DNA of 64,000 nucleotides from Octopus vulgaris (taxonomy: Eukaryota): positions 80,538,001 to 80,602,000 of the forward strand of contig OX597823.1 in NCBI GenBank assembly GCA_951406725.2, written 5' to 3'. A model generated the notes under the pieces. It was not told the origin of the DNA. It made no database searches and was given only the letters and a program-made list of their open reading frames with translations. Every line of letters starts with the position of its first letter. Position 1 is the stretch's first letter. Shown here in pieces: positions 1-27,510 of this stretch. A program made the position numbers and the translations under genes.

Positions 1-1586
1 AAATCTTTTTCAAAATTATTTCAGTTTTATTTTGCAGATATATAGGTGCTGTGTGTTGATGTGTATGTGTGCGCACCCACCAATTTCTTTTTTCTTTTAT
101 TTTTCACATCAAATTCCGATGTAATCGTAACCTACACCAAGACGAATTTATAGAAAATTTAATTTTTAAATAATCCAGAAAGTCGGTGTGGGGGGCAAAC
201 TTGTTAGGTGTGCCGTTTTGTTTTGGGGGTATTTTTTAGGATCACATTACTCACTGTCTCTTTACATTTCTTTAATTCAGAAAGTAGGGCGTGATTTAAA
301 AGATCCATTTAAGGTGTTATTTTAACTGCTATTTTTAGCCGGTTGAGCTATTACATAACGGATCCCTCTCGTTTTTGTTTTTTTAATATTTTAACGTTCA
401 ACATCCACGAAGTGAGCCTGTCCCAAAACTTTATAGGGATATTCTGTGTTCACTTCTATGACTAAGATAATGTTATTGAGAAAAAAGATCAGAATGAATG
501 TCACACAATCTTAATCTTCTATCTATGAATCTCATGCCTTGCTGCTAAGTTTAAAGAAAATTTATACAAAACCCACTCTATTTATAGCAACTTGTATTGT
601 ACATTTTACACGAGCCAACCATAGAGCCTCTACGCGGTCGTGCGACCTGTTAGAAATAGCAGCCAAATATCTCTTTTCTATTGTAACTCTAACATTCATA
701 TACCGTGGGTTCATAAAATAGTTTGTTTATTAAATATATATGTTCATTAATTTTGAGGATCTTTTCTTTTTGAAGGCCAGATTTCAACACAATTTCTAGT
801 TAACTAAACACTTTAAAACTTCGTATACTGGTAGAATGAGTCAAAAGAAAACAATTTGGATTCCTAATATTGTCACAAAATTTGTGGGAGCGTACGACTG
901 ATTAGATAAGTATTTAATTTATAAACCCCAGAGGAATATAATGTAAAATAGAGCCCAGGATTTAAAGTAACATATGAAAAAACATAGCATGGGGTATTTA
1001 ATTTGAGGTTCAACAATTTTTGTTACCTAACTACGTAATTAAATGTTACGGTCCTTCCAGCAATTATGCTAATTATGAACCAAAAAATAAAATTTATATT
1101 TTCGGCTTCTGCAATACTTATTTCAGTATCTCCTACAAGTGCAGTTAACATCACTTTCACTTCTCATTTTCACCCTTTTTTCATCTCTATCATACGCTTA
1201 TCTTTTTATTCTAATTTTAATTCCCCAATGTATTGTAATGTCCCCTCTATGTAAAACCTTTATGGTTAATAATATAATAAAAAATCAGTATCTCCTCTAA
1301 GTATGGTTTTCATATTCAACATTGAAAGTATTTGATTCTTGCTTTGTAGAGAGATATTTAATGAAATATGCGAAAAAATTAGGAAAATGTGAAGAACTGA
1401 GGTTTATAAAGTTTTATTGAGGGTGTCTTCACCGCTTCTCGCAGTTTAAGAGCTTCTTTTTTAAATGGTAATAAATTTTAGCCAACGCTTTTTGAGTTTA
1501 AAGGGTTAAAGCTGAATCAGTTTGTTATGGGTTATTGACTGTAAATCTGTCACTGCTTCTAGACGTAACGACCTTTTCAGACACAT

Positions 1587-1672
1587 ATATATCTCCGGCT
1601 GACGTTTACGAATTCATAAGTGAATGTGAGGATTACTCAGAAGCAATTCAAACTCTGGAGGGAGTACTTGAA
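1587..1672 (+). mobile_element. Possible Ty3/gypsy gag fragment
   Basis: Translates ISPADVYEFISECEDYSEAIQTLEGVL, resembling gag N-termini of invertebrate gypsy elements (from memory); no flanking ORF. Confidence 0.35.
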
Positions 1673-2099
1673 ACCTTATAATAAGCTTTTAAACTTTGAT
1701 ATTTGAGTTTGAGTTTATAACAGGTACGATTTTGAATACCTACCTAGTTGTGAGTAACTGCCTTGAGAGACAAAGAAAGACAAAGGAGTAAACTTGATCA
1801 TCCAGAATAGAGCTACGATGGAAGTCGACAATCTCTAAGCAAATCTTGTAGCCACTTTGGATACAAGTACCATTTTATTGTTCAGCACTTCTTTGCACAT
1901 CAACAATGTTGAGAAGGAAATGCCTATGTCTGGACCACTCGGCATCTCTCTGCATTCGGCCCACTCGTTCGTTGGCGAGGTCACTTTTGTACACTGTGAA
2001 AAGCTGAGCAACAACACATCATCATCAACCCTTGGACATTGCTAGAGTCCTAAGACTTATAGCCTGGTTTCCATTGAAACCAGAATTACAATAAGACTT

Positions 2100-2290
2100 A
2101 TAGCTTGTTTTCTAAGTGACCTGAATGGGTAGCAAGTCCGTTTGCAGGATTACTCATTTACTGCCGAATGGACTGGAGCAACATGAAATGAAATGTCTTG
2201 CACAAGAAGGCAACGCACCGCCCTGTCCGGGAATCGAAACCACGATTTTGCGATCGTGAGCGCAACACCCTAAGCACTGGGCCACGCGCG
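2100..2290 (-). mobile_element. tRNA-derived SINE (CORE-like body)
   Basis: Minus strand reads GTGGCCCAGTGCTTAGG (A box) ... GTTTCGATTCC (B box); related copies near 24890-25180, 34060-34315 and 56370-56690. Confidence 0.7.
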
Positions 2291-3239
2291 TACACAACTG
2301 TCGGCTTTGCCGCCACTCAAATTGTGACCGGCGCCATAACCCTCTTGAGATCGATGTAAGTCAAAAGAAAGAAGAAAAAGGGAAGTTTATTTTATTGAAA
2401 AGGTAATTTTCATTTATTATTACCGTCTGCATTTACCACACCAAACTAAAGTGACCTGGCTCTAAATAACAACAGTAATATTTCTGAATAAGTCCGGGCC
2501 GTTATTAATGAATGTTTATCCAGTTGCTAAGTACGAACTACATCTCAGTAATATTTGTGCTTGGCCACCCGTAAACCTCACACAAACAGAAGGAAGAAAA
2601 TAAGATTTTGTTTAAACTTCTGTATGCTCACTTATCTCCTAGGATATTAATTCACAACATTATCTCTTGAATAAAAAGAAGTGGAGAACTTTTTTTTTTT
2701 GTTTATCTTACCCCCAATAATTAATTTTTATCTTCCTCTTTAACTTCCTCCCGTCGTTATTATAACAGGGTGTAAACTTATTTCTTACCACTCGACAAAT
2801 TTTACACTTGCTTTGTGATAATGATGAAAGTGTGTGACTTAGTGGTTAGAGTGATCTTTCATAGCAATAGCATATCAAATATTGGTAAAACTGCATATCA
2901 AAGGTAGGATTTCTTTCTACTTAGAGTCTAGAACATACTTTGATTCTGATCAATTATCCACTAAAAAGCAAAATCTCGGCCTTCATTAAAGTACTACTTA
3001 TGTATTTGGGAAGCTCTTGTTACTCTACTTATAACATCCTGAAATGTGTCTAGACAATCTTGATAGTCAAATATTCCTACATCAGCTAATAAAAGTAAGT
3101 TTCAATGAAACTGTTTATTCCCGCCATTTGTTTTATTAATATTATATGACATGAAACCAGGATTACAATAAATTATCTCTAATAACGGATTGCAATACCC
3201 CCTCACACACACATACAATATATTATTATTATTACTATA

Positions 3240-3385
3240 TATTCCGCCGAAGTCGACTTAGCCTTTCATCTTATCGTAATCAATAAAATAAGTACCAGCT
3301 GAGAAAAGGGTCAATGTTATCGACTAGTCCCCTACACCAGACTTGATGGCCTTATGCCAAAATTTGAAACCATCATTATTATTAT
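3240..3385 (+). mobile_element. SINE family B, 5'-truncated, (ATT)n tail
   Basis: Shares gtcgactt-gcctttcatc...aataagtaccag body and ggccttatgccaaaatttgaaacc tail with the copy at 49598-49810. Confidence 0.65.
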
Positions 3386-3468
3386 TGAGTGAGAGAGCAA
3401 TGCATGTCATAAAAGTGACACTGGGGTACAAATATACGAAACCCAATATACCCATCATGGCTACCCGT

Positions 3469-3876
3469 CTGATACTGGTACACCAGGCACATGCATCACA
3501 ACGATATATGCGTAACATGGTAATCTCATCTCAAGATAAACACCGCATGACCTTGCAGGTGAAGCCCACTTAGACTTTTCTTCGGGTTAAGTAGCCTATC
3601 CCGCTCAAAAAACACCTGAATTAAGTTTGTTTCAGAACAATAAACGAAACACCTGGTGAATTATTCAAACCCCAAAGAATCCCTCTCAACAAATGGCTGC
3701 ATCATGATCAGAGTTGCACACATCGTCAGCCACTAGGAGACATACTCAAGTGGTTATGGTCAAACAACTGACAAGCAAATCTGTTGTACTGAGCAGAATA
3801 TTTGCTGTAGTCCAAAGACAAAGTACATGATAACGCATATATGGTTCTGATGCATGTGCCTGGTGTACCAGTATCA
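3469..3876. repeat. ~50 bp inverted repeat pair flanking a repeat remnant
   Basis: tgatactggtacaccaggcacatgcatca (~3470) is the reverse complement of tgatgcatgtgcctggtgtaccagtatca (~3848-3876). Confidence 0.75.
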
Positions 3877-3879
3877 ACA

Positions 3880-4094
3880 ACTCCAATATTCTTAATATGT
3901 CTTTCAAAGCCCTTGGAACTGCTCCTAATGCTCCAGTTACCACTGGTATCACCATTACTTTCCTATCTCATTCCACAGTGGATGGTATTTCTCAATCTTT
4001 TTTTGTTTCCTTACATTCCACCCTCAAATCACATGGTATTGCAACATGTATTATCTTTATTTCTTTTTCATTTCTATGGATTATTATTATTATT
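3880..4094 (-). mobile_element. R4/Dong-like non-LTR retrotransposon fragment (restriction-like endonuclease C-terminus)
   Basis: Minus strand, frameshifted: IIIHRNEKEIKIIHVAIPCDLRVECKE..IEKYHPL..EI..VIPVVTGALGAVP, matching the RLE IDVAIP..KE.EKY..VIPVV.GALG pattern. Confidence 0.7.
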
Positions 4095-5380
4095 CTTTCT
4101 TCTTGAGAGGACGGACGTGTCTAAAGCTGCGAAAGTTTATATATTTTTCGATATTTGTGTGGCCAAGCCAACTAACTTCTAGCGGAGCTAGTTGGCTCAG
4201 CAAAATTTAACCCTTAATGGGGTAAAATTTGCATTTTTGAACTTTGAAAACTGTTAAATGTATACACATTATTTCAGAAAACATGGCTATGAAGCGAACA
4301 GTCGGCTGAACGGTTCCAAACCGCCCATTTCGCACCTTAAAAGGCAACAAAGAATCGTCAAATGAACCTGCCAGCATGTGCAGCGTTCAGAATGAAAATG
4401 CAAAACAGGACATCACTTTTAACGTCATTGAGGATTTCCCTCCTCTTCCCTCCACCAATGCTCTGGTACCAGAGAGGGAGGAAGAGCAACCTATGAACAA
4501 CACAACCAACAAAGACACCACCACCAGCAACAACACTGAACAACATCATAACAATTTCGCCTCTGCTGCCAAGCAGGTCTCGGAAGAAATAAAAGTTACA
4601 ATGCAGGAAATCAAAACGGCCAAATGTTTATTGAAAAAACAAGGCAACCAAATTTACCTCAATACACCACAAGAACTCATAAAATAGACAAACAGAAAAA
4701 CAATAATTTACAAAATTTTCGAAAGAAAATACAGAAGAATAACTAACGCCACACCACAACAACTGGAAATAGCTCTGAAGCCCATTTGGGGTCAAAAGAG
4801 CTATGTGACCTAGGGGAAGCGGTTTGGAACTGTGGAGGTTTGTTTCCCAACGGAGGAGGATGCAAGGAGACATGCCTCTTCGCCCTTGCAAACCTAAAGT
4901 TTGGTGGCAGCTGTCCTCTATGACATAGAGGACACTGCCACTATTCTGGATGTACGCAGATTAAGGGAGAAGAACTGGTCTGGTATGGCACAGATCCAGC
5001 AAGAAAATATAAATTCAATTCCCGATTCCATAAATTTGCTGGACGGCACCAGATTGCACGTTGCTGTAGAGGGGCGAAGGCCAAAGTGCTACCTCTGCAG
5101 CAGCGAAAGCCATCTGAAAAAAAGACTGCCCCATTTACAAGCAAAGAATGAAGGCACAGAAAAAAAGAAACAGCAGCAGCAACAACAACAACAGCCGGAA
5201 ACACCAAAATTTGCCACAACACCATCACCACCACCACCACGAAGAGCAACACCACTTCCAGTCACCACCAAACCAACACCAAGAAGGACCAAGCAGAAGG
5301 AAGCACCAACACTGTCACCAACAACTACAGCAACAGCACCATTTCCCACAAACAATAATGATTTTTGACAAAGAATTAAT
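4095..5380 (+). mobile_element. Tx1-like element unit 1 (5' UTR + partial degenerate ORF1, no ORF2)
   Basis: Same 5' motifs as unit 2; ORF1 ATG 4283 with stops and deletions; RPKCYLCSSESHLK knuckle; ends aagaattaa(tta)n. Confidence 0.85.
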
Positions 5381-5629
5381 TATTATTATTATTATTATTA
5401 TTTCTTCCAACGCTGATGGACGTGTATCCGGAGGCTCTGTGATTTTTGCACCAATTTCATTGGAAATTTATTGATAAGTCTTAATATTTTTTAATATTTT
5501 TGTAGCCAAGCCGACTAGCTCTTTGCAGAGCTGGTTGGTTAGGCAAAATTTTGCCCCATTCGGGGTGAAATTACGTTTTGAAATTTTGAACATTTGAACA
5601 TTTAAACATTTTGAAAATTACAAAAAAAC

Positions 5630-7420
5630 ATGGCTATGAAGCGAACAGTTGGCTGTTCCTTCCTTCCAAATACATTCCCTCCGCAAACACACACAACTCG
5701 TCCAAAACACCCACTTCACGCCTTAAAAGGCAACAAAGATCCTCCTTCCGAACCGGAGAGCACGCGCTCCGTTCAAAAGGAGAATACAAGCCAGGACGTC
5801 GCGTTCGACATAATTCCCGATTTTCCCCCTCTGCCTTCACCCAATGCTTTGGTACAGAAGGAGGAAGAAGGAAAAACAATTACCAAAATTATTACAAACA
5901 TGAACACAGAGAAAAATGAAAAAACTTCCAACGATTTTGCTTCTGCTGCGAAGCAAATTTCGGATGAAGTTAAGATCACTTTAGAAGACATAAAAAAAGC
6001 GAAGGAATTATTGAGGAAGGATGGCAACAGCATCTTCCTCAATACTCCACAAGATGTAATTGACAACACCAACAGGAAAACAATTACATACAGAGTTTTC
6101 GATAGAAAACTGAAAAAAATGACAAACGCCACACCCCAACAGTTAGAGATAGCTCTAAAGCCCATTTGGGCCCAAAAGAGCTATGTAACCAAGGGGAAGC
6201 GTTTCGGAACCGTGGAGGTTCGCTTCCCAACAGAGGAGCAAGCAAGGGCAAACGCCATTTCGCCCTTGCAAACTGAGAGTTTGTTACTCGTCCCAACCCA
6301 CCTCGGGCGAAGAGTGACAAAAATAAAGATTGACCTTGCCCCCCCTGAACTAGATATGTCATGGCTGGTGGCAGCTGTCCTCTGTGATATAGAGGACACT
6401 ACCACCATTCTGGATGTCAGGAGAGTGAGGGAGAAAAACTGGTTGGGGATGGGAGTGCTGCTTCTTGCTCAAATTCAGCAAGAAAATATCAGCAAGGTCC
6501 CAGATTTTGTGAGTTAGCCGGACGGCACCAGGCTAAACGTTGCTGTAGAGTGGCGAAAGCCAAAATGTTTCCTCTGCAGCAGCGAAAGCCACTTAAAGAG
6601 GGACTGCCCCATTCAAAAAAAGAGAATGGAGGCTTACAGCAAGAGGCAGCAACAACAACAACAACAGAAACAACACGAAACACCAAAAGCTGCCACACCA
6701 CCAACACCATCACCAGCACCAAGACGAACAACACCACCTCCAACAACAACAACCACCAAACCAACACCGACACCAGTACCTCGAAGGTCGACAGCAGCAA
6801 CATCAACAGCAACAGGAGCAGCGGCACCACCGATACCGGCGGAACCAACAACCTTTCGTCCTGCTGCTGAAGCAGACCGCTCAACCATTCCTTTGCCGGA
6901 TGAAGAGTACTCGGATTGTGCGAGCTCTGATTCCAACAAAGGAGAATGGAGCACAGTGCCTCCAAAAAAGAAAAGGAGGAAAAAACAAAAAGATATACAG
7001 GGGAAGCACGAACAAATAGTGCTTCCAAACATCAACAACAACATCAACGACAACACACATTCACAACAACAAACAACAACACTTTCGACACCACTACTGC
7101 CATTGCCACTGCCACAGACACAAACCCACACAGACACAATTACAGCAATAAATACAAAAAACCAAGAACTGGTTGAGTATTTGAAAGACAAAACAAGCAC
7201 AAATATAACGGATTTCGTTATACCAACACAAAACACACCACCAGCACACATTCTCACAATAAAAATAAACAAAACAACATATAATGAAATCAAACAAAAT
7301 TTCCCTAACGATGTGGGATCGTTAGGGAAAAGTTTCTCTAAGAAACTATATAAAAATATTGTGGAAGAACCCATGCAAAAGCACAAGGGAGCCACCCCCA
7401 CCACCAACAACAGTAAGTAG
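5630..7420 (+). pseudogene. Tx1-like ORF1 (RRM-like region, CX2CX4HX4C knuckle, Q/P/T-rich linker, PPKKKRRKK basic patch)
   Basis: ORFs 5630-6517 and 6626-7420 are in the same frame, split by one TAG at 6515-6517 (other copies encode L in NLPDG); KCFLCSSESHLKRDC knuckle near 6565-6607. Confidence 0.88.
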
Positions 7421-7457
7421 AGCCTTTTTTCTCCTTTTTTTCCCTAACTTTTGAAAC

Positions 7458-10400
7458 ATGGCAAATCTTAGAATCGGTTGCTTGAATGTGAGAGGCCTCG
7501 GGTCACCTGTTAAACGACCTGAGGTTTCATGATGTGGATGTAGCAGCCATCAGTGAAACCAGGCTCTCCGACCCGCAGGAACTCGCAGCCCTTTTCGGCG
7601 GATACGAGATATTTCTATCTCCGTGTCGGCCGGGAGCGGGCGGTGGTAGTACTGCGGTGTTGTTTCGGAAGGGCCTGGACTTGAAAATAAGGACAGTCTT
7701 CTTGGATCCGGAAGGTAAGTTGGTGGTCCTTGACGTGGACGGTAGTGACGGCGGTGCTTTCAGACTGCTGGCTGCCTACGCTCCGACAGGAGCAGGGCAG
7801 TCGGATTATTTAAAACGTCTGGAAGTTTTCCTGGGAACGTCACACACTCTAGTGCTAGTTGGGGATTGGAATGCTGTCTTAGACGAAAGTTTCGATCGGG
7901 TGGGCAGGGGAGCGTCTGATAGGAGAGGGGGAGGGTGCAAGATCCTCGCCAACCTACTCGGCCGCTTTCAGCTGTCCGACAGGTTTCGACTAGACAACCT
8001 GAATGTGCCAATGTGGACTTGGACCAACCGCATCGGGTCGTCTAGATCGTACTTAGATAGAGTGTTTTGTAGGCCAGCGGATAAGGACAGCGTAGGGTGT
8101 CCACAATTCCACCTAGTCGAATATACGGACCACAAATTAGTGATCTGTACGGTCGACTTAGATAGGCTACATAGACAGGGACCCGGCTACTGGAAGCTGA
8201 ACGCGTCGTTAACGACGTGCAAAGCTTACAGAGACCGGATTAGTTTACTAGTTAAGCGGGTGCTCACGGGGGCAATCATCAACAACAACTGGTGGTTTGC
8301 CCTCAAGAGAGCAATTAGAGTAGAGTTGATTAGGTATAGTAAGACTCTAGCTATTGAACGTAAGAAGAGAGAGCGGGATTTAGTTAAGAAACTAGACGAG
8401 GCTCTTGACACTGGCATCGCGACCGACGTATTGGTGGCAAGGTTGGCCCTCGACCAACACTTCGACGCCAAACACGAAGGCTGCGTTGTCAGAGCTAAGG
8501 CACGTTCGCTAAGCGGGGAGGGGACTAGAGCCGCTTGATGGGCCCGCGTGGCGGAGGCGAAGCGAGGCAACAAAGCAACCATTCGGTCTTTGGTGGACTA
8601 GAACGGGCGCGAGGTTACCGAACCGAAGCAGATGTGTACGGTGTTTCAGCGGCGCTTTGCTCAACTGTTTGAGATGAGCGGTGGAACGGACAACGGTGCA
8701 GACTTCGGTGTGTACCTGGACAGCCTACCGCAACTCTCGGACAGCGAGGCAGAGTGCTGCAAAGGACCGATATCTGCCTGGGAAGTGGAGGAAGCGATGA
8801 AGAGTTGCACGAGAGGTAGATCGCCGGGTTTGGATGGTCTGCCCTACGAGCTTTACGTTTCAATGCCAGACTTGTTTGCGGGCCTGTTGGCAAACGTCTA
8901 CTGCAACTGGCAGCAAAACGGGAGAATTCCTGCTTTTGTCTGTCGAGGGGTGGTGGCTTTGCTGAAGAAGGACCCAAACAAGGGGGACGTTATAGGGAAT
9001 TTCCGGCCCATCACTCTGCTCAATGCAGAGTTGAAGATTTTGGCCAAGGTGCTAGCCAAGAGATTGGCGCTTGTCGTGGACAAGCTGGTCGGCGGGACGC
9101 AGACATGCGCCGTGCCGACCAGGTCGATACACGACAACCTCCATCTCATGCGCTACATCATAGAGAAGGTGGGTAACGACGCTGGCGCGGGTGGGGCTTT
9201 GATCAACTTAGATCAGAGTAAAGCCTTCGATAGGGTCGACCATCGGTACCTGGCAGCTGTTCTCAAGGCAGCCGGCTTCGGTCCAGTGTTCCGCGGGTGG
9301 ATAGCTGCTTTATACAGCAACAGCTGCTCGGTGATACGGGTGAATGGTCACCTTTCGGAACCGTTCAACATCTCGCATTCAGTCCGCCAAGGATGCCCTC
9401 TCTCCTCCCTCTGGTACATATTGTCTCTCGAGCCATTACTGCACAAGTTGGAGGCTTTGAGGGGTATCCCGCGCGATCTAGTAGACGGAAACAGCGTGTC
9501 TGCCTATGCTGACGACGTCACCGTGAGGGTGTCTAGCCACAGGCACATTGGCCTGATTGGCGAGACACTAAACGAGTATGAAGCGGTGACAGGGGCAAAG
9601 ATTAACGCGGAAAAGTCTGTGGGCTTGCAACTGGTCACCTGGAGAGGCAAACCCATGCCGTCCAACAGCGTCGTAGGGCGCTGGACAGACGGACCCATTA
9701 AACTGCTCGGGGTCTGGTTCAGTCCGGACCTCCAGGTGGATAAAAACTGGGAAGAGGTGACGAGCAGGGTGGCACGTCTCACCCAGAAATGGGCCGAGAG
9801 GAAGCTGTCCCTGAAAGGTCGAGCAGAGGTGGCGAATGCGTACATCGCATCCGTCATCTATTACCGCTTGACCGTCGTCCCTTGTCCCGACTGCTGGTTG
9901 GCCAAGCTGTTACGCCTGCTCTTCGACTTTTTGTGGAAGGGTCAGGTGCCACTGGTCAGGCGATCCATCTGCTGTCAATGACCGCTGAACGGAGGCCTTG
10001 GAATGCCGTGGTTGCTGATGCGCTCAGGCTGCGACATCTCAAGCGTTTCCTAGATGGTGAACAGGTGTGGTCGTCTTTTGTCAGACGCGATTTTCCGCAG
10101 CTAGTCTCTTTGACAGAGCTGCAGACCTGGATCAAACGTAGACTGAGAAAGGGCGCTTGACACCTCGAGTGCCGTCAAGCTCCTTCCACCAGGCGGGCAA
10201 TGCGATCGGTTACAGCTCCACTCTAGCGTTCTATAGAGGGTTAGTGGAGGAAAAATGCGACGACGTTCTTGGGGAAACTCTAGGCGTTGACTTTAACGAA
10301 CTGAGCGGTCTGTTCGGAAGGACTTTCGGGCCGGGGCCGATGGATAATTTCCAGAGGTCGCTCGCCTGGCAGTGGTACCGAGGGGCTCTGCCTGTTCGAG

Positions 10401-10855
10401 ATAAACTCTACCGGCACGGAAGTGCCGTTGGCCGGGCCTGCCCGAGGTGTTGCCAGGACGACGAAACCGTTCTGCACGCACTCGTCCAGTGCCCAAGTAT
10501 TGCTGAAATATGGGTTTATGTTGAACAACTACTGTCACATGTAGGACAGATCCGACTATCGGCCGAATCCATAGTGAAGATTGCCCCGCCGACCTCCTTT
10601 AACAAGGAGGGCGAGGCCGTTTTCTTGTGCCTAGTGGCTGTGGCGAAAGAGGTGGTGTGGTGGACTCGTTTGAAAGGGCTAAAGTCAGACACTTTCCTCT
10701 TTGGTCAAGGCCTCATCAACTTTTTCAAGTTTTGCTTGAAAAGGAAGATGAGGTTAGAGAGGAAAGTGCTGTCCGATAGCAAGTTTTATGAAAGGTGGGT
10801 AAATTGTGCGAGACTGGCCAGTATAAATGGACCAGTTCTCAGGTTTCGCCTGTGA
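7458..10855 (+). pseudogene. Tx1-like ORF2: AP endonuclease + reverse transcriptase + C-terminal zinc finger
   Basis: MANLRIGCLNVRGL start; SET, YAP, GDWN, YLDRVF and TDH APE motifs; SPGLDG, FRPITLLN, DQSKAFD, VRQGCPLS and YADD RT motifs; CPRC..ETVLHALVQC; frameshift ~7515, stops at 8536, ~8598 and 9979, further frameshifts ~10020-10190. Confidence 0.95.
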
Positions 10856-11143
10856 TTTCAAAAGGGTAATATAAAAGGAGAAAAAAGGGACTCTCTACAC
10901 CCCTTTTTTGACCAGGCTCCCGTTGGCTTTTATAGGGTTTTTTCCACCAGGAACCTTTCATAACGCCTCCCCCTTTTGGGAGTTTTTCATTGTTAATGTT
11001 TTAAATGTTATAAAGTTTTTACTCGGATTTTTCAAAAACGGACAAAACCCTTTGTAACCTTTCGTCCTGTTTTGTCGTTTTATGTAATCATGTATGTTAG
11101 CCCTTGTGGCCAATAAAAAGAATAAATTATTATTATTATTATT

Positions 11144-13393
11144 CTTTCTTTCCGACACGACGGACGTATGTGAAGCAGCTCTGTGAGTTTTGTGCCAATT
11201 TTATTGAAAATTTTTCTAAAAGTTGTAATATTTTTTGATATTTGTGTGGCAAAGCCGATTAACTTCTTGCGAAGCTAGTTGGCTAGGCAAAATTTTACCC
11301 CTTTGGGGGTAAAATCACTGTTTAAAATATTGACATTTACATTTTATTTCATTTGAACATTTCCAAAATGTCTTTAAAAAGAGCAGCTGGCTCTTCCCTT
11401 CTTTTAACACCACCCCCTCCACAAGAAGAAAAAATTTCGTTAGCGGTTCCGAACCGCCCATTTCGCGCCGTAAAAGGCAAAGAAAATATTGCAATGGAAC
11501 GTGCTGGAAAGCAAAACGTTCCAAATGAGAATAAAAGAGAAGACGTCACTTTCGACGTCATTTTAGATTTCCCTCCTCTGCCCTCAACCAATGCTATGGT
11601 ACCGAAGGGGGAGGAAGGGAAAGATATGAATAACAGAGAGACAAGTAAAGAAGAGAGAAGTGAAGAAGATTCCAAAGGTTTTACTTCAGCTGCGAAGCAG
11701 ATTTTGGACGAGGTAAAAGTTTGGGTAGAAGACATTAAAATGGCAAAGGAGTTGTTGAGAAAAGAGGGAAACAGTGTCTTCCTCAACACACCTCAACAAC
11801 TCATACATGACACTAACAAAAAAAACAATTTTTTATAAAGTTTTCGATAAGAAAAATAAAAGACTGGTTAACGCCACACCCCAACAATTAGAAATGGCTC
11901 TGAAGCCTATATGGAGCAAAAAGAGCTATGTGACCAGAGGGAAGCGTTTCGGAACCGTGGAGGTTCGCTTCCCAACAGAGGAGCAAGCAAGGGCACATGC
12001 CATTTCGCCCTTGCAAAATGAAAATTTGTTCCTCGTTCCAATGTACCTCGGGCGTAGGGTCCAGAAAATAAAAATTAACACAATACCACCCGAACTAAAC
12101 ATATCATGGCTAGTGGCGGCTATCCTCTATGACATAGAGGACACTGCCACTATTCTAAATGTTCGGAGGGTAAGAGAAAAGAACTGGTCAGGTATGGGTA
12201 TTGAACTGCTGGTACAAATCCAGCAGGAAAACATTAATGCCATACCTGACTCAGTCATTTTACTGGATGGAACCAGGCTAAATGTTACTGTAGAGGGGCG
12301 AAAGCCAAAATGTTATCTCTGCAGTAGCGAAAGCCACCTAAAGAGGGACTGCCCCATTCAAAAAAAAAGAATGGAAGCAAACGGCAAGAGGCAGTAACAG
12401 CAACAACAACAACAACAGCACGAAACACCAAAGGCTGCCACACCACCAACACCAGCACCAAGACGAACGACACCACCTCCACCAACACCAGCACCAAGAC
12501 GAACGACACCACCTCCAACAACAACCAGCAAACCAACACCAACCCCAGCACCAAGAAAAACAACTAAAAAACCAGTAGAAACACCAACATCGTCATCATC
12601 AACAACAGATACAGCAACACCACCGCTACCAAAAGAACCAACAGAAATCTTTCGTCCTGCTGCTGAAGCAGACCCATCAACAATTCCTTTGCCGGATCAC
12701 GATAGCTCAGATTGTGCGAGCACTGATACCGAAAAAGGAGAATGGCACACAATACCTCCAAAAAAGAAAAGGAGGAAAAAACAAAAGGACATACAGGGGA
12801 AGCACGAACAAATAGTGCTTCCCAACATCAACAACAACAACACACACTCACAACAACAAACAACAACAACACTTTCGACACCACTACTGCCACTACCACA
12901 CACACAAACACACACAGACACAATTACATCAATAAATACAAAGAACCAAAAACTAGTTGAGTACTTAAAAGACAAAACTAGTACAAGTATAACAGATTTC
13001 GTTATACCAACACAAAACACACCACCAGCACACATTCTCACAATAAAAGTAAGCAAAACAACATATAATGAAATCAAACAAAATTTCCCTAACAATGTGG
13101 GATCGCTAGGGAAAAGTTTCTCCAAGGTACTATAAAAGGAGAAAAGGGGCCCTCTACCCCCCTTTTTTGACTAGGCTCCCGTTGGCTTTTATGGGTTTCT
13201 TCCACCAGGAACCTTTCGTAACGCCTCCCCCTTTTGGGAGTTTTTCGTTGTTATATTATTTGATTGTTATACAGTTTTTACTCGATTATTTTTCACAAAC
13301 GGACAAAACCCTTTGTAACCTTTCGTCCTGTTTTGTCCCTTTATGTTTTTCTAATCATGTGTGTCAGCCCTTGTGGCCAATAAAAAGAATTAA
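11144..13393 (+). mobile_element. Tx1-like unit 3 (ORF1 + 3' UTR, ORF2 deleted)
   Basis: ORF1 remnant 11368-13135 (frameshifts); at ~13125 it joins the 3' UTR homologous to 10860-11125. Confidence 0.9.
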
Positions 13394-13420
13394 TTATTAT
13401 TATTATTAATTATTATTATT

Positions 13421-15912
13421 GCTTTTGAAGCGGACAGACGTACTTCCTGAAGCTGCGTAAGTTGTTGACCATTTCTGCCTGAAATTTTGTAAATATTTTT
13501 GGATATTTGTGTGGCCAAGCTGACTAACTTCTTGCAGAGCTAGTTGGTTAGGCGAATTTTACCCCTATTATGGGTAAAATTTTCGTTTGAACTTTTAAAT
13601 TTTTGCATACATTTCCATTTCATTTTACAAAAAATGTCGTTGAAGAGAGCAGTTAGCTGTTCCCTTCTTCAAACATCACGCCCTCCACACAAACAAGCAA
13701 TTTCGAAAACGGCTCCAAACCGCCCATTTCATGCCTTAAAAAGCAAACAAGAAAATTCATAAGAACGTGCCGGCACGTGCAACGTTCCAAATGAAAATGG
13801 TAACGAAGGCGTCACTTTTGAAGTCATCGAAGATTTCCCTGCTCTTCCCTCCACCATTGCTCCAGTACCAGAGAATGGGGGAAAGAAGACCAGCAACGGG
13901 GAAAGAAGACCAGCAACGGGGAAAGAAGACCAGCAACGACACCGACACCACCACCAGCAATGACACAAAAAGTGAAAGCCATCGTAACGGTTTCACCTCT
14001 GCTGCAAAACAGAGCTCGGAGGAAATAAACGTTACGATGGAAGAAATTAAAAGTGCAAAGAGTTTGTTGAGGAAAGAAAGAAACTGTTTTCCTCAACACA
14101 CCACAACAACTAATTAATGAAACAAGCAGAAAAACAATAATATACAGAGTCTTCGAAAGAAAATATAAAAAGTTGAGCAATGCCACACCACAACAACTAG
14201 AGATAGCTCTAAAGCCTGTATGGGGTCAAAAGAGCTATGTAACCAAGGGAAAGCGGTTTGGAGCCATGGAGGTTCAATTCCCAATGGAGGAAGCGGCAAG
14301 GAAGCATGCCATTTCGCCCTTGCAGACAGAAAATTTGTTGCTCGTACCAACATACCTTGGTTAGCGAGTGACAAAAATTAAAATTGACCAGGTGCCGCCC
14401 GAGCTAAGTATATCTTGGCTAGTGGAAGCTGTCCTCTATGACATAGAATACACTGCCATTATTCTAAAAGTGCACAGGTTGCGGGAGAGGAACTGGTCAG
14501 GTATGGGGGTGCAGCTGCTTGTACAAATTCAGCAAGAAAATATAAATGCCATACCTGATTCGGTAAATTTGCCGGACGGCACCAGAATACACGTTGCTGT
14601 AGAGGGGCGAAAACCAAAATGCTGCCTCTGCAGCAGCGAAAAACACCTAAAAAAGGATTGCCCCATTTATAAGCAAAGAATGGAGGCAGAAAAAAAGAAG
14701 CAACAACAACAGCATGTGACACCAAGGGTTTCTGCACCACCACCACGAAGAGCGACACCACCAAACTAACACCAAGAAAGAGCATGCAGAAAGAAACACC
14801 GGCATCGTCACCAACACCAACAATAATAACCGCCGTTTATAACAGAATTAACAGCATTTCGTCAAACTGTTGAAACAGACCCGACAAACGTCCCCTTTCC
14901 AGACCAAATCAGCTCGGATTGTGCGAGCACTGATAGTGAGACAGTGCCACCAAAAAAAAAAGAAAAGAAAAAACACAAAGAATCACATGACACACTGGGG
15001 AGGTGCAAACAAATAGAGCTTCCCAACATCAACAACACTTTCTCCACTACTGCTACACATCAATACACGCACAGACACCATTACAGCAATAAACACAAAA
15101 AATGAACAACTTGTTACATACCTGAAAGAAAACAGACACGAAAATTACAGATTTTATTATACCAACACACAACACACCACCAGCACACATTCTCACAATA
15201 AAAATTAATGAAAATAAATACATTATCAAAGAGAAATTCAGAAACGATGTTGGGTCGCTAGGGAGAAATTTCTCAAAAAAACTATACAAAAACCTGGTGG
15301 AAACACCCGTGCAAAAGCACAAGGGAGCCACCCCACCAAACAACAGTAAGTAGAACCTTTTTCTCCTTCTTAACCTTTTAAAACATAGCAAAACTCAGAA
15401 TTGGTAGCATAAATGTGAGAGGCCTCGGATAGCGAAAGAGGTGATATGGTGGACCCATTTGAAAGGGCTATAGTCAGACACTTTCCTCTTTGGCCAAGGC
15501 CTCATCAACTTTTTCAAGTTCCACTTGTAAAAGAAGGTGAGAGTAGAGAGGGAAATGTTGTCTCGTCACAAATTTATTGAAAGGTGGGTGAATGTCAGTA
15601 AAATGGCCAGTATGAACGGACCAATTCTGAGGTTACACCTGTAAAAAAAAAAGGTAAATATAAAAGGAGAAAGGGGCTCACTACTCCCATTTTGACCAGG
15701 CTCCCGTGGTTTTTATGGGTTTTTCCATGAGTAATCTTTCAAAGTGCCTCCTCCTATTGGGAGTTTTACTTAATTATATATTTTCGTTGTTATCTTGAAT
15801 TTTACACGGACCTTTCTATTGGACAAAACCCTTTGTAATTTTCGCCCTGTATTTGTCCTTACATGTTTTCTTTGATTTTTGTTAGCTCTTGTGGCCAATA
15901 AACAAGAATTAA
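13421..15912 (+). mobile_element. Tx1-like unit 4 (ORF1 + both ends of ORF2, ~3.1 kb internal deletion)
   Basis: ORF1 remnant 13634-15353; aatgtgagaggcctcgg (cf. 7485-7501) fused at ~15429 to gcgaaagagg (cf. ~10643). Confidence 0.9.
13878..13938 (+). repeat. 20-bp tandem repeat x3 inside unit 4 ORF1
   Basis: (gggaaagaagaccagcaacg)x3. Confidence 0.9.
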
Positions 15913-15936
15913 TTATTATTATTATTGTTGTTGTTG

Positions 15937-17990
15937 TTTTCAAAGCTGACAGACGTGTCTCCAAAAGCTCCGTAAGTTGTTGGCCAATTTCATAGGAAAA
16001 TTTGTTTCAAGTGTAAATATGTTTGTATATTTGTGTTGCCGAGCCAACTAGGTTCTTGTGGAGCTAGTCAGTTAGGTGGAATTTTGCCCTTTTAGGGGCG
16101 AAATTTTCAATTTAATATTTGTAAATTTTGTAAAAGTGTCTTTGAAGAGAGCAGTAAGCTGTTCCCTTCTTTGTGCACCACACCCGCTGCAGACGGGCAA
16201 CTTGACAAGTCAAACATCAAATGTTGATTCAAACTGCCCATTTCGCACCTTAAAAGGCAAAGAAAAGAATATAGAAGAGCATTCCACCATGTGCAGCACT
16301 ACTCAAGTAAATGAAGGCTGTTCCTTCAACTGCCTTTCTGACCTGCATTTCCCAGCTCTCACCACCACTATTGCTCCCACACCGGAGAAGGAAGTAGAGA
16401 AGAACATAAACAAGAAGAACAAAGAATCCAACACCAATGACACCAGCAAGACCAACAACAATCCATTGTAACAATTTTGCCTCCACAGCAAAGCAAAGCT
16501 TGGAAGAAATCAATGTTACAATGGACAACATTAAAACAGCAAAAGAGTTGTTAAGGAAAGAAGGTAACAATGTCTTCCTTAACACTCCACAGTCACTAAT
16601 ACAAGAAACAAACAAACGAACATTAATATAGAAAATTTTAAACTCCAAATACAAAAAATTGGAAAGTGCAGTTGGAGATAGCACTCAATCCCATATGGGG
16701 CAAAAAATCCTTTGTAACAAAAAGGAAGCGGCTTGGAACCGTAGAAGTTCGGTTCCCAACGGAAGAAAAAGCAAAGAAACATTCACCATCGACCTTGCAA
16801 ACTGAAAATTTGCTACTCGTGCCGACATACCTTGGTCTGCGTGTAACCAAAATCAGAATAGACCAAGTGCCGCCCGAGCTTATATACTGGCTAGTGGCAG
16901 CTGTCCTCTACAACATAGAAGACACTGCCACTATTTTGGAAGTGCATAAGTTGCACAGCCAGAACTGGTCAGGTATGGGAATGCAGCTTCTTGCACAAAT
17001 TGACCAAGAAACAATAAATTCCATACCCAACTCTATAAATTTGCCGGACGGCACAAGGCTGCATGTTGCTGTAGAGGGGCGAAAGCCAAAATGCTACCTC
17101 TGCAGCAGCAACAAACATTTGAAAGTCGACTGCCCCATTTACAAAGAAAGAATGGAGGCAGAGAAAAAGAAGTTACAGCAGCAACAACAACAACAGGTGA
17201 TGCAGCAGAAGCAAACACCAAAGGCTTCTGCACCACCAACACCATCACCACCACCACGAAAAGCAACGCCACCTCCAACCATCACCAGACCAACACCAAC
17301 ACCAAAGGCAATCACACCAAAAGGGACAATAATACCATCACAAACACCAACAATAGCAGCACCAGTTTCAACAGAAATTACGCCATTTTGAAAGACTTGA
17401 AACGGACCCCAAAGACATCCCCTTTCCCGACCAAATCAGCTCAGAAAGTGCGAGTACTGGTAGTGAGAAAAGGGAGAAACACCTGAAAACTGGGGATGCA
17501 TGAGAAAATAGAGCTTTGCAACATCATCAACAACAACAATAACATGCACTCACAACAATTAACCCCTTCTCCACCACTACCACCGCACACACCAATACAC
17601 ACAGACACCACCACCAATACAAATGTTACAGTAATTAACCCAAAAAAGGAACAACTAGTGACATATTTGAAAAACAATACAGACACAAACATTTCAAATT
17701 TTGTCATACCCACACAAAACACACCACCAGCACACATACTCTCACTGAAAATTTCACAAGACAACGATATCAAAATAAAAGACAAATTTCTGGACGATGT
17801 TTGATCCATGGTTGCAGCTCTGTAACCTTTCAAAGTGCCTCCCCCTATTGGGAATTCTTTGTAATTGTTATATTTTTCGCTGTTATTTGAATGTTTACAC
17901 AGACCTTTCTTTTTCGCAAAACCCTTTGTACTTTTTGTCCTTACATGTTTTTGATTTATATTAGCCCTTGTGGCCAATAAAACCAGAATT
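15937..17990 (+). mobile_element. Tx1-like unit 5 (ORF1 + distal 3' UTR)
   Basis: ORF1 remnant ~16136-17804 with KPKCYLCSSNKHLKVDC; joins the 3' UTR at ~17825; ends cccttgtggccaataaa. Confidence 0.88.
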
Positions 17991-17998
17991 ATTATTAT

Positions 17999-19722
17999 CA
18001 TTTTAAAGCGGAAGTACATGTCTTCATGAGCTGGAGTTTTTGTTTCATTTTCACAGATAATATTGTTATACCTGTTAATTTTTTTGATATTTCAGTGGCA
18101 AAGCCGTCTGGGCTCTTGCTGAGCCTAGTGGTTAGGCAAGACTTTGCTCCTTTATGGGCAAATTTTTCATTAAAAAATTTTCAATTTCTCTTTTTGATTT
18201 TAAATTTTGTGCAAAAATGTCCTTGCAGAAGAGTGTGAGCTCTTCTGTGCTTTGTGTATCACACCTTCTGCTGTTGAATAACAACAAAAAAGTTCCGTTA
18301 ACTGTCTCCGCCCACTCCACGCCTTAAAAGGCAGAGAAGAGAATGAGAAGATATGCTCCAGCACATGCATTGGTCGGGAGAAAAGAATGTAAGCTTTTCA
18401 GAATTTTTCGCTTTGACCGGCAGATTTTTTAAATAATTTCTTTGTAACTAAACACGTTTAAACTTCATATACTGGTAAAATGTGTTACATAAAACATCTT
18501 TTTCTTGTGGCTTTCTTCGGAAAATGCTGTAGTTTATAAGCTATTTGTTGTTTAATTTCTTGCATTTTGGCAATTTCAACCAATCAATGATGGAGAGGTA
18601 AAAGCCCAACAAACTTGCTCTGACATTTCCAACAGTGATGGGTATCAACTGGATTTCCTGGATGTGCCAATGTGAATATGGATGAATCACACTGGGTCAT
18701 CCAGGTCATATATAGATAGGGTATTCTGTAGGCCAGTAGACCAAGAAACTATAAGTTGCCCACTTTTCAAACTGGTCGGCTACTCAGTCCACAAACCTGT
18801 GATCTGTACGGTTGACCTACATAGGTTTAGAAGGCAGGGACCCTGTTACTAGAAGCTAAACATGTCACTCTGAATGTGCCAAGCTTACTGAGACCAGATT
18901 AGAGAATTAGTTAAGAGGGTGTTGACAGGGCCAATCGCTAACAACAAATGGTGGTTTACCCTGAAAAGGGCAATTAGAGTAGAATCAGATTTAGTAAGGC
19001 ATTAGCGATAGAAAGGAATAAAATAGAAGGGAATTTAGTTAAAGACTAGTGCTTAAGAAATGCATTGCAACCAACATGCTGGCTGTGAGATTGGCCCTGG
19101 ATCAATTCTTCAAAAAGGTTGCATTGTCAGAGCTAAAGTGTATGCTCTAACACAATAGGGAGTGTAAGCCACTTATTAGGGCCCAGGTGACAGGTGCATC
19201 ATGGCAACAAAACCACAATTTGGTCTTTGGTGGACCAAAATGGGTGCATGATACTTGAGCCCAAGCAGGTGTGTGCGGCATTTCAGCAGCACTTCACCCA
19301 AAAGTCTGGGACGTAGGATGGACTTCAGTGTCTACCTCAACAGCATACCACATCTCTTGGAAAGTGCTCATGGAGTGTTGTAAAAAGCCAATAACAGCTT
19401 AGTAAATACAGGACACAATGACGAGTTGCATAGGGGGCTAATTGCCTTGCTTGGATGGTCTGCCTTATGAGCTTTACTGCTGTATGCCAGACTTGTTTGG
19501 CAAATGTCTACCACAATTGGTAGCAGAATGGGAGAATTTCCAATTCTGTAAGTTGAGGAGTGGTGGCACTTCTAACAAAGGGGATCAAATAGAAAATTTT
19601 AGGCTCATAATTTTGCTGAACATAGACTTCAAAATTTTGGCCAAGGCATTAACAAAGAGGTTGGTGCTTGTTGTCAAGGAACTGATTGGTGGTGTGCAAA
19701 CATGCACAATCCCAAGCAGATT
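17999..19722 (+). mobile_element. Tx1-like unit 6, most decayed (5' UTR, ORF1 start, part of ORF2)
   Basis: 5' hairpins and ATG 18217; foreign repeat at ~18405-18590; 18640-19720 is homologous to ~7970-9125 (LDGLPYELY, NFRLIILLN). Confidence 0.85.
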
Positions 19723-20828
19723 AGGCATAGTAATATTTATAGCCTGGTGTTAGAATTCAATATACTTATTTAATGATACTCGCCATAAGGATTTCATTAA
19801 AAACTGCAATGTAAATTAGCTAAAAGTAACAATTCAAATAACAATGTGTAACAATTTTTTTTTTGTCTTTGCTGTCAGTAAGTGTTATTTCCAATTTGCT
19901 TCTATCTAGAAATCAAAGGAAATGACTACTATTCCCTTCAAACTTTGCTTTTCTGACCCGGACATCAATGTTTTGAAACTGATCTATTTTCCATTACATT
20001 TCAGACAGATTCAGTGCTGAGTTGCTGGAGCAGAAATATCGTTATAACAAATATTTTCCTCAGTACCACAGATTTGCTGGTCAGTTGCTTGACCATAACC
20101 ACACCTAGTGGCTGACACAATATGTGCATCTCTGATCATGAACAGGAATGGTGGGGGAGCATCATAGCCATGTGTTAACAGGGATTCTTTGAGGTTTGAA
20201 TAAATGTAACAAAGTTTGAAGGAAATATTAGTCATTTTTCATACTTTCTAGGGGTAAGCAAATAGGAAATAACAGTTACTAGCCAAGGACAAAAATCCTA
20301 GCAGGTTGTTTAGTTTCATTTTTGATGTTTTTAAAAGAAAATATGACTCTTGTTCAAAGATCGCATGTAACTACTTAAATCAGCCAAAAATAACTGTTAC
20401 AGTTCTGGAGAATCCAAAATCTTTAAATAGTCAAATCCTATATGCATCCCTTTTCAATATATAATACATAGTCTCTATCAAGACACGATCCGTGAACCAG
20501 TAAGAAAACGATTGAATAACCTATGAGCTGGTTTAGTTTCATTTACATTCTCTTGCTGAAATTTGTGATTGTATTGCCTGGTTCTTGAAGCATAATATTT
20601 TGAACATTTTTTGAAAATGTTGTAAACCTAGAAGCATTATGCAATGTCTCAAACATTAAAGGTTAATATGACAAAGACCAACATTTTATTTAACAACAGA
20701 CAGGAAAAAATTTCATAGTCTTTTTCAAAGTAGTCCTACTCAAAATGTATGAACAAAGATGGTATACATACATACATACATAAACACACACACACACACA
20801 CACACACTCACACACACACATACACACA

Positions 20829-20985
20829 TACATAGATACTGGGATTCTTTCAGTTTCCATCTATCAAATCTGCTCACAAGACTTTGGTCCGAGGGGTATA
20901 GTAGAAGACACTTAGTGAAGGTGCTATGCTGTGAGATTGAACCCAAGACTACATGGTCGGGAAGCAAGATTCTTAACCACACAAC
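20829..20985 (-). mobile_element. tRNA-SINE family A, head portion
   Basis: Reverse complement of the 39528-39685 head; abuts (CA)n/(TACA)n microsatellites. Confidence 0.75.
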
Positions 20986-21034
20986 ATATCAATATACATG
21001 TGTATATTTGTATATTCCTATCTCTCTCTCTCTG

Positions 21035-21066
<32 letters not shown>

Positions 21067-22292
21067 CATACATACATACATACATACATACATACATACA
21101 TACATACATACATCATACATACATACATACATACATACATACATTTGTAAATATAAATATATGTATGTAGTATATTTCTGGTTATGGCTTATAATTGGTC
21201 AGAAGGCTACTGTTGAATTCGTTTGGCAATAGATGACCCATCAGACATACTGGCTGGAAGCCCATAGCATCTTTAATTCATACACACACACATTATCCAC
21301 ACTATCGTTCCCTTTTTTTAAGGAAACTATATGAGCTAAAGGAGGTATAGCTGCTATTTCTAGTATATCAATGAACCATGTTGCCTCATTTAACAGCTTA
21401 GCTATGCTAAGTGTAGGGAATACATGCACACAACCAAAAGCTGTATGAAGATATATGACTTGCTGACAGAACCAAGGGTAGCAAACAATAGAGGTTCCCT
21501 TGAAGTGAAGTCGATGCCATTGTCAGGTGGTGTTTTACAATAGTTGATAGTTTCTATTACCTAGGTGACCTAATTACTGCTACAGACTGATTGAAGCAAA
21601 AGCTAAGGAGCTCAAGGTAAGGCAGGGGCATGTAGAAATTCTGACAGTTATTGCTTATGTTCGTAACAATGGTAGGACAGTCTGAATAAGAAGCAGTAAG
21701 TTATTGTGTGGCTGAGGCTTTGATCTGTTGCATGTTAATCTACACAAAGTTGTAGGGTGAATTTCAAAGAAAGGTAGCACAAAATGTTTAAAAAGTACTA
21801 GATTTGCGTTAAAAAGTTGCCCAAATTATACATTTTACTTGAAATCTAATACACGCATGCATACACTCACTCACTCACTCACACATGTATATACATAGAA
21901 AATAGATACATACATAGATGGACAGAGAGTCAGACAAGAACATACACACACATATATATATGTAGTTCAAATTTATAAAAAAACAAAAGACGAAGACATG
22001 TAGGAACAAAAGCAGGTGTGTTAATTCAACACGCAGGGAAAAATATATATATATATGCATACGTACATATAAATCATCATCATCATCTTTGTTATTTAAT
22101 ATCCATTTTCACTGCTAGCATGGGTTGGACAGTTTGACAGGAGTTTGCCTGTCGGGGAGCTGGCATGAGTGCATTTACGTGCCACCGGCACAAGTGTGGT
22201 TACACAGTTCCAGTATGAGTGCAACTTACATGGAACTGGCACAAGTACGTTTTATGCAATGCCGGCACCTGCAAAAGGCATGTATATATATA

Positions 22293-22665
22293 TCTCTCTA
22301 TATATAAATGGCAGTTTGTCTGTGCGTGTTTCTGTGTGTCTGTTTGCTTGTACCCTCACCCTGACCACGGCTTTCAACCGATTCTGATGAAACTTGACAC
22401 ACACATAGCCCAATGTCATAATTCAAAACTAACGCAGCGAAAATTTTGAAAAGTTCCCCCAGTTCTGAAAAAAATCGATTAATTCGACATGGGGTCGAGA
22501 ATCAGAAACACAAACCGCAAACTGTCTAGGGGACGCAACTCCACCTTTTTTTACTCTCAAAAAAAATTTACCATCATTTTTTCCCATTTTTTGGCTATAA
22601 CTCTCTAAAAATGCTTTATAGTTATTTCCCTTACAAACCTGAGCAACGCCGGGCGATACTGCTAG
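22293..22665 (+). mobile_element. Non-autonomous Helitron
   Basis: 5' TC(tctctatatataaa), subterminal hairpin cctgagcaacgccggg, 3' CTAG, inserted between A and T in (TA)n with no TSD. Confidence 0.75.
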
Positions 22666-22686
22666 TATATATATATATATATATAT

Positions 22687-23070
22687 TCTTTTACTTGTTT
22701 CAGTCATTTGACTGTGGCCATGCTGGAGCACTGCCTGTAGTTGAGCAAATCAACCCCAGGACTTATTCTTTGTAAGCCTAGTACTTATTCTCTCATTCTC
22801 TTGTGCTGAACTGCTAAGTTATGGTTGTCAAGCGATGTTGGTGGACAGACACAGACACACAAATATATACACACACACATGCATATATATATACATATAC
22901 ATATATATGACAGGCTTCTTTCAGTTTCCGTCTACCAAATCTACTCACAAGGCTTTGGTCGACCCGAGGCTATAGTAGAAGACCCTTGCCCAAGGTGCCA
23001 CACAGTAGGACTGAACGCGGAACCATGTGGTTCATAAGCAAGCTACTTACCACACAGCCACTCCTACATC
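22687..23070 (-). mobile_element. tRNA-SINE family A, near full length
   Basis: Reverse complement of 39528-39890, with internal (TA/CA)n. Confidence 0.8.
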
Positions 23071-23095
23071 TATCTAATATATATATATCTTTTAA

Positions 23096-23315
23096 CCCTT
23101 TCGTTACTGTATTTCTTATGAGATGCTCTGTGTTTCTTTTAATTACTCTAAATATAACAAAATATTTAGTAAAATAACTTAGTTATCATTGAGCTAGTGT
23201 TAGGAACATAAATTGTGACTAAGGTTTGGTGGAAGATTTTAATTCAAACCTTATGAAAACAAGACATTTATACTGAGAGCCAGAGCCGGTTTCAGCCGGG
23301 TTGGTAATGAAAGGG
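23096..23315. mobile_element. piggyBac-like MITE
   Basis: TTAA|CCCTTTCGTTAC...GTAATGAAAGGG|TTAA; second copy, inverted, at 50758-50978. Confidence 0.75.
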
Positions 23316-23459
23316 TTAAATTAATTTATGGTAACATTAAGAGAATGCAAATAAAGCTCCTATTTCATTATGCTGGCTACTTTCTAATGATGCTGACTAG
23401 TGAATCAGTTTTTCAGGGTTGCATCATGGTTATACTGATATAATGTAGGATAAATAAGA

Positions 23460-23790: not shown

Positions 23791-24011
23791 TATATATATG
23801 TGTGTGTGTGTATCTCAATACACACATATTGTAAGCTTCCACACTGGTCTTCATCTACCAAATTCATTCACAAAGAGTTGTTTGGCCTCAGGCTATAGCA
23901 GAAGACACTTGCTCAAAGTGCCACATGGTTGAAAAGTGAGCTTCTTAACCACACAAATATGCCTGCACCCTATGTATAAGTTTACATATGTGTATATAAT
24001 ATTATCACAAT

Positions 24012-27467: not shown

Positions 27468-27510
<43 letters not shown>

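Follow-up and report, generated by a model that had tools for sequence, protein, structure and literature searches.

Among Tx1-type long interspersed nuclear elements (LINEs), the reported microsatellite targets are (TC)n, (TTC)n, (TTCC)n, and (TTTC)n, and TAA repeats are reported as the target of Dong (PMC4494074, PMC3812793). Kibi, Koshi, and the crocodilian (TTCC)n and (TTTC)n families are Tx1-type LINEs that combine an apurinic endonuclease (APE) with a reverse transcriptase (RT) and have a microsatellite on both sides (PMC4494074, PMC3812793). We describe a likewise flanked element in a 64,000-nucleotide stretch of Octopus vulgaris DNA (contig OX597823.1; hereafter the window), where six co-oriented Tx1-type LINE units, U1 to U6, lie head-to-tail within 4095 to ~19722 on the plus strand, as do all features below unless noted. 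The octopus element differs from Kibi and Koshi in that its repeat is (ATT)n rather than (TC)n or (TTC)n and its RT forms a lineage of its own (support 1.0); any specificity for the repeat is judged here from one locus. We put at roughly 0.7 the probability that the units are copies of separate, once-active lineages stacked by repeated insertion at one (ATT)n site, and that the units retaining only the first open reading frame (ORF1) likely relied on the enzyme of complete relatives to be copied.

Elements of the Dong/R4 group have a single ORF with a restriction-like endonuclease (RLE). The APE domain and two ORFs of the array element rule out Dong/R4 identity. Dong shares the microsatellite, with its RNA processed against the TAA repeats upstream (PMC3812793, PMC3774820); it is R4-related with a 5′ ribozyme, whereas the array element encodes an APE, has two ORFs, faces the other way relative to the repeat, and matches no ribozyme in Rfam. 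Tandems of R1, of the P element, and of SINEU-3 resemble the array in that their units are parted by a piece of target the size of a target-site duplication (10.1101/158386, PMC4494074), and an insertion that keeps its target invites the next one and is a source of tandems (10.1101/158386; for tandem SINEU-3, PMC4494074). Reported tandems of non-long-terminal-repeat elements mostly join a tail to a truncated unit, whereas here 5/5 joins run tail-to-head and the unit lineages stand at a synonymous divergence (dS) of ~1. The ingredients of what follows, namely microsatellite-targeting Tx1 elements, tandems by repeated insertion, half-LINEs, and promoters with a downstream promoter element (DPE), are already known. 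In the literature we found neither an (ATT)n-targeting Tx1 family nor a comparable octopus array, but Kojima and Fujiwara 2004, Repbase, or the supplement and Zenodo library of PMC13282606 may already record the family. L1-Tx1 elements are recognised and recently active in O. vulgaris, with 13 families and 421 insertions (PMC13282606), and have expanded in coleoids (PMC8967140); the available parts of these two reports give no targets for octopus or coleoid L1-Tx1.

The heads of all six units can be aligned (59-74% identity), and an (ATT)n run of three to nine repeats lies ahead of each of them (4080-94, 5379-5402, 11126-43, 13393-13420, 15912-26, and 17988-98). The remaining 48,310 bases of the window hold 11 runs of at least three TTA or TAA repeats and, by self-BLAST, no family sequence. 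If runs and heads were independent, six runs would fall at six heads with a chance of ~1e-15. The original prediction, made from the letters of the window, of six same-strand units each preceded by (TTA)n is borne out, with boundaries at 4095-5378 (U1), 5403-11125 (U2), 11144-13392 (U3), 13421-15911 (U4), ~15927/15937-17987 (U5), and 17999 to ~19722 (U6). Its picture of six LINE copies stands as to the array and falls short as to completeness: U2 alone is full length, U1, U3, U4, and U5 lack ORF2, and U6 is a decayed fragment. It had also set the kept 5′ ends against the usual 5′ truncation of LINE insertions. All six 5′ ends are indeed kept, but this is less puzzling than presented, since four of the units lack ORF2 and are short (1.3-2.5 kb). 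The U5/U6 junction is crossed by contigs from three runs that carry three different organism labels (X2, 17945-18296; X3, 17945-18294; X4, 17934-18296), and contigs of 4/4 runs bridge the right end of U6 (19272-19903). This join and this end are real and shared and no assembly artefact at those places; the bridging covers these two sites, no listed piece crosses the whole array, and the ATT junctions at 5368-5412 and 11112-11153 were masked in the mapping. A telomeric array was rejected, since (TTAGGG)3 at 37149 is the only such run among the listed repeats.

U2, although broken by stops and frameshifts, defines the element. Its ORF1 (5630-7420) has an RRM-like region, a CCHC knuckle, a Pro/Thr-rich linker, and an internal stop at 6515-6517; the knuckle motif CX2CX4HX4C is present in the sequence, with the zf-CCHC match under the Pfam cut-off (E 0.007-0.035), and Atlas look-alikes of ORF1, queried with the Octopus sinensis homolog, are CCHC/RRM clusters (best 0.93). 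ORF2 (7459-10855) matches the APE endonuclease PF03372 (5e-16), the RT PF00078 (2e-28), and zf-RVT PF13966 (1e-8); a PDB search with the APE region gave 0 matches. The 3′ untranslated region (UTR; 10856-11125) has AATAAA at 11112 and no poly(A). The sequence thus has the traits of Tx1: an ORF2 with APE, RT, and a C-terminal zinc motif, and a separate ORF1 with an RNA-binding fold and a CCHC knuckle. U1 consists of a head, the N-terminal two thirds of ORF1 (3 stops and 1 frameshift in 202 codons), and the last ~9 nt of a tail, fused to mid-ORF1 across an AAAGA microhomology. U3, a mosaic, and U5 (start ~15927/15937) are ORF1-only units. U4 has a complete ORF1, the first codons and the last 71 codons of ORF2, and the 3′UTR. 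U6, the oldest unit, has a head and the start of ORF1, a foreign repeat (18395-18567), and a decayed piece of ORF2 (18641-19722), its 3′ end being lost. The foreign repeat is dispersed, with relatives at 751-841 and 37289-37453. At the end of U2 ORF2 (10640-10770) contig depth rises several-fold above its surroundings, perhaps marking a short derived repeat.

Membership of the Tx1 clade, which had been proposed from the start, is likely rather than proven. In its favor are the ORF2 domains and the position of the RT amid Tx1-like loci in a 101-sequence tree built from U2, a choice of 40 among 120 listed proteins, and loci matching over 300 residues. There, the U2 RT and its best-matching relatives form their own long-branched lineage (support 1.0), placed amid loci in U2 small nuclear RNA (L001, L003), 5S ribosomal RNA (L007), and (CT)n (L006, L008, L009) and a protein named 'Transposon TX1'. 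Against certainty, the deep nodes have support of 0.2-0.4, and the tree has no named references or outgroup. The link of this lineage to the (CT)n-flanked loci has support of 0.34 only and monophyly with Kibi and Koshi was not recovered, which places the element outside the Kibi/Koshi branch as judged from this tree. We take the 5S ribosomal RNA locus (L007) to be Mutsu-like. The loci in U2 small nuclear RNA and (CT)n are Keno- and Kibi-like, respectively, after the names in PMC4494074. Among the matches listed, the best relative of the U2 RT is one protein at 71%, followed by a group at 45-51%. The ORF1 core had 2 matches in 3,463 candidates, both from O. sinensis (proteins at 93% and 74%), which marks the window as octopus-type DNA. 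One gene model of that species, P0220, carries a piece of the family's ORF1 at its end, and a separate ORF2 fragment in the window (29533-29712) shares 50% with P0001 across 60 residues. In metagenome contigs, Tx1-type RTs were also seen beside U2 small nuclear RNA, 5S ribosomal RNA, tRNA, and an (ATT)4 run (L001:701-817, L003:554-716, L007:5892-6010, L029:5276-5330, L014:5425).

Evidence for serial insertion comes from how the units differ. For the ORF1 core, compared among five units over 189-233 codons, the ratio of nonsynonymous to synonymous divergence (dN/dS) was 0.13-0.24 (upper 95% bound ≤0.36) at a dS of 0.60-1.34 in 10/10 pairs, while neutral simulations gave medians of 0.61-0.86 with a lowest 2.5% bound of 0.40. 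Differences between units are concentrated at third codon positions, and dN/dS is also low for U2-U6 in ORF2 (0.24) and for the part shared by U2 and U3 (0.20, interval 0.06-0.52). Values this far below neutral mean that the lineages were still active as the units diverged. A single dead copy that was duplicated and then decayed neutrally is contradicted by the observed against the simulated ratios, and the original claim that the array is no recent segmental duplication of one copy is upheld by these ratios together with the unequal ages of the units. Lesions number 18 in 301 codons in U6, 4 in 202 in U1, 2 in 230 in U5, 2 in 238 in U4, 1 in 236 in U3, and 7 in 1,141 in U2 (a count that leaves out the frameshift at the start of ORF2). 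Per 100 codons this is 6.0 (U6), 2.0 (U1), 0.87 (U5), 0.84 (U4), 0.42-0.7 (U2), and 0.42 (U3), a tenfold spread, and U6 is the oldest unit (U6 versus U2, p=4e-8). We conclude that separate active lineages and unequal decay make arrival of the units at different times well supported, with serial insertion as the simplest account. U3 resembles U2 at 77% across the ORF1 core and at 92-93% over the 3′ part. CpG observed/expected is 0.98 in U2 ORF2 (7982-9108) and 0.15 in the matching part of U6 (18641-19705), which suggests methylation-driven decay with age.

How ORF2 was lost is a separate matter. In U2-equivalent coordinates, 7353 is joined to 10865 in U3 (at 13126-13137), 7501 to 10643 in U4, and 7320 to 10952 in U5, so that each of the three skips from the ORF1 end to the ORF2 end or the 3′UTR, starting ≤100 nt from the ORF1 stop and finishing ≤212 nt from the ORF2 stop. 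One random deletion would fit these bounds with p=0.005, the window of positions having been set post hoc and U4 and U5 possibly sharing an ancestor. ORF1 is the sole coding region of U3, U4, and U5, and both ends are kept, as in half-L1 elements (HAL1), which likewise retain ORF1 without ORF2 and have several origins (PMC5753468); the array units differ in being Tx1-derived and stacked with a complete relative, and are known here as single-locus copies. Such clean removal would suit HAL1-like ORF1-only elements, whose short RNAs would be copied to the end more often. An alternative with a real chance, though short of even, is that all six units inserted complete and lost ORF2 later in place through microhomology-mediated deletion; it bears on the deletions alone and can hold together with serial insertion. 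Microhomologies where U3 and U1 are broken, the loss of the U1 3′UTR and the U6 3′ end, and the lack of any multi-copy deleted junction among the listed contig joints fit this alternative, as does the precedent of the rotifer Adineta vaga, whose Hebe element has microhomology deletions, no 5′ truncation, and an internal-promoter-type head (PMC2861651). Hebe is otherwise unlike the array, being of the Jockey clade, with a poly(A) tail, its own CATT initiator, small deletions, and no microsatellite target (PMC2861651). Against this alternative, deletion in place would have had to excise ORF2 cleanly three times with nearly all of ORF1 and the tail retained. The ORF2 remnant of U4 (dN/dS 0.50, interval 0.21-1.14) is more decayed, with 2 stops in 71 codons compared to 2 lesions in 238 codons of its ORF1 (p=0.23), a weak hint only in the same direction. 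A 223-nt contig considered as a copy of the U3 deletion is not assignable to U3 (22 differences reported, 15-17 expected). For U1 and U6, deletion in place is probably correct.

The joins between units bear on what the target is. They read ATTA + (ATT)8 at U1/U2 (5375-5402), (ATT)6 at U2/U3 (11126-11143), ATTAATTATTATTATT twice at U3/U4 (13389-13420), (ATT)5(GTT)4 at U4/U5 (15912-15938), and (ATT)3AT at U5/U6 (17988-17998), so that an ATT stub without poly(A) stands at every join; the stubs between units measure 11-28 bases, the size of target-site duplications. The doubled U3/U4 sequence is a candidate 16-bp target-site duplication and the single one found, other readings being possible within a repeat; it is identical to the tail of U1 (5375-5390). 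In 4/4 true tails AATAAA lies 6-9 nt upstream of the downstream repeat without poly(A). Tails of the form agaa-t(a)a(tta)n had been claimed for five units, but only 4/6 units end in a real 3′UTR tail; in U1 no 3′UTR precedes its 'agaatta(tta)n'. An exact match to the tail motif occurred 0 times in metagenome contigs. That the tail recreates its own target, also proposed from the letters, is plausible, but a special role for the tail is indistinguishable here from an ordinary target-site duplication, which preserves any target.

To the left of the array lies a repeat of very high depth (3388-4079, minus strand) that contains an RLE-like reading frame and has (AAT)n on either side (3376-84 and 4080-94). 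No database match establishes its family, and RLE-like is our label, presumed from a motif; it is possibly a truncated Dong/R4-like LINE joined to the array's ATT repeat but facing the other way. Within it is a 44-bp inverted repeat, 95% alike (3470-3513 and 3833-3876). Elsewhere in the window, another repeat pair (24009-24368 and 40451-40812) is 92% alike over 362 bp with (TAA)n/(TTA)n ends.

It is improbable, but worth weighing, that the true target is longer than the bare microsatellite, being either the family's own tail (AAAGA-ATTA-ATT) or an isoleucine-codon run in an RLE-type LINE. The doubled U3/U4 16-mer does include the tail's ATTA, the (ATT)5 before U1 (4080-4094) reads on the minus strand in frame as IIIII in the neighboring RLE-like frame, 0/11 of the other TTA/TAA runs in the window carry the element, and transposon targets are known in Tx1, for example Tx1L and Tx1-Mar (PMC4494074). 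However, no family tail lies ahead of the U1 head, and the RLE-like frame was not found to continue right of the array, where the U6 3′ deletion could have removed it. We give still less weight to the arrival of U2 and U3 as one block of ~8 kb, copied once from a source locus as read-through RNA of a complete element and its ORF1-only follower. The 16-mer of the U3/U4 join occurs both ahead of U2 (5375-5390) and behind U3 (13405-13420) with the predicted U2 start at 5391, the two have equal lesion density and 3′ parts 92-93% alike, and internal units of such a block would all retain heads. Two single insertions would nonetheless yield the identical sequence, the much older U6 and U1 would be left unexplained, and no second U2-U3 join was seen (that junction being masked). 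Amplification of one insertion by unequal crossover followed by neutral decay, although it would give head-to-tail order and a U3 whose 3′ part resembles its neighbor U2, can be dismissed as very improbable, being contradicted by third-position bias and a dN/dS far under the neutral values in every pair and in the part shared by U2 and U3, by unequal decay, and by a U2 ORF1 93% identical to the O. sinensis protein that the codons of other units match at only 66-78%.

Under repeated insertion at one (ATT)n site, general LINE biology suggests how each unit might have been added. The APE domain would nick the (AAT)n strand, and RNA cut after AATAAA within a read-through (AUU)n would pair with the nicked end and prime reverse transcription; priming inside (AUU)n would mean that no poly(A) is copied. 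Duplicated or split repeat would remain on both sides of the insert, and the site would therefore be open to further insertions. New arrivals just behind the U1 tail would push older units rightward, with U6 the oldest, which fits the lesion counts.

The heads point to a possible second use of the repeat. Their most conserved early motif, RGACGT(G/A), occurs in 5/6 and is DPE-like (GGACGTGT at 4113-4120; also 5418, 11162, 13436, and 15951; degenerate at 18014). Motifs of this kind occupy +28 to +32 in jockey, Doc, G, I, F, SART1, and TRAS1, and L1Tc has CGTG at +25 to +28 (PMC4748587); DPE spacing is strict (PMC4180977). With +28 to +32 spacing, 5/6 units have their predicted start on an A within the upstream repeat (4086, 5391, 11135, 13409, and 15924), a phase kept although the unique spacers vary (15, 18, or 24 bases), and L1Tc-type spacing likewise places the start inside the repeat. 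We therefore predict a transcription start inside the upstream repeat, each head holding only the putative downstream half of a polymerase II promoter and the RNA starting with one to four AUU units. The cDNA end could then anneal to the target and favor clean 5′ joins, as in the model for R2, where upstream target sequence in the RNA yields precise joins through annealing of the target-derived cDNA end (PMC3774820); R2 relies on a ribozyme acting on a ribosomal RNA co-transcript, in contrast to the polymerase II start predicted here. Two 5′UTR hairpins (4162-4230 in U1) are present in all six heads, with z of -3.1 to -6.9 in 6/6 and equally stable shuffles in 0/200; covariation is marginal (4/27 pairs, with 15-27 of 500 shuffles as high). 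Three Rfam matches in the heads lie far under gathering scores and were taken as chance, leaving no ribozyme or known RNA there, and 3′UTR structure is unsupported (z -1.2 to -1.5, without compensatory change).

These features allow a further-reaching proposal that we hold tentatively and judge unlikely as a whole: an (ATT)n-targeting Tx1 lineage may borrow both RNA ends from its target, the repeat serving as initiator for a half promoter and as tail priming sequence. Only in-phase copies would be transcribed, each insertion would restore the promoter of its downstream neighbor, ORF1-only satellites would ride along, and arrays would be self-sustaining source loci that recruit new subfamilies over long times.

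Several observations count against this proposal and against serial insertion at (ATT)n more generally. U6 is one base out of phase with its head motif, the phases share ancestry, an A would be hit in 1 of 3 cases, and G at +24 is present in only 3/6 heads. A family is taken as target-specific when the target occurs in >20% of flanks (PMC4494074); the case for (ATT)n rests on a single locus, and only 5/80 loci of distant relatives have at least four TTA/TAA repeats anywhere, so that the target is not clade-wide. The (ATT)5 run on the left may belong to the coding part of a different transposon. Summed contig depth, which is not copy number, was 674-3,348 (X1) and 1,819-4,070 (X3) for the U3 head and 12,043-31,863 (X1) and 56,102-140,565 (X3) for the U2 3′UTR; the several- to tens-fold lower head depth hints at many family copies without this head, with truncation or head turnover common, against 0/6 headless units here. 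The order of U2 to U5 is not separated statistically, nor are lesion densities of U1 from U2+U3 (p=0.056) or of U4+U5 from U2+U3 (p=0.45). Finally, the listed contig joints include no multi-copy ORF2-less joint, the window's own joint being likewise absent there.

If the reading is true, two things would be new: an APE-type element on an AT-rich repeat hitherto associated with Dong, and one microsatellite serving as both landing site and transcription start. The double role would connect the choice of target with expression, a matter still unsettled for target-specific LINEs, and an APE domain that nicks the repeat would extend the natural sequence-specific LINE endonucleases.

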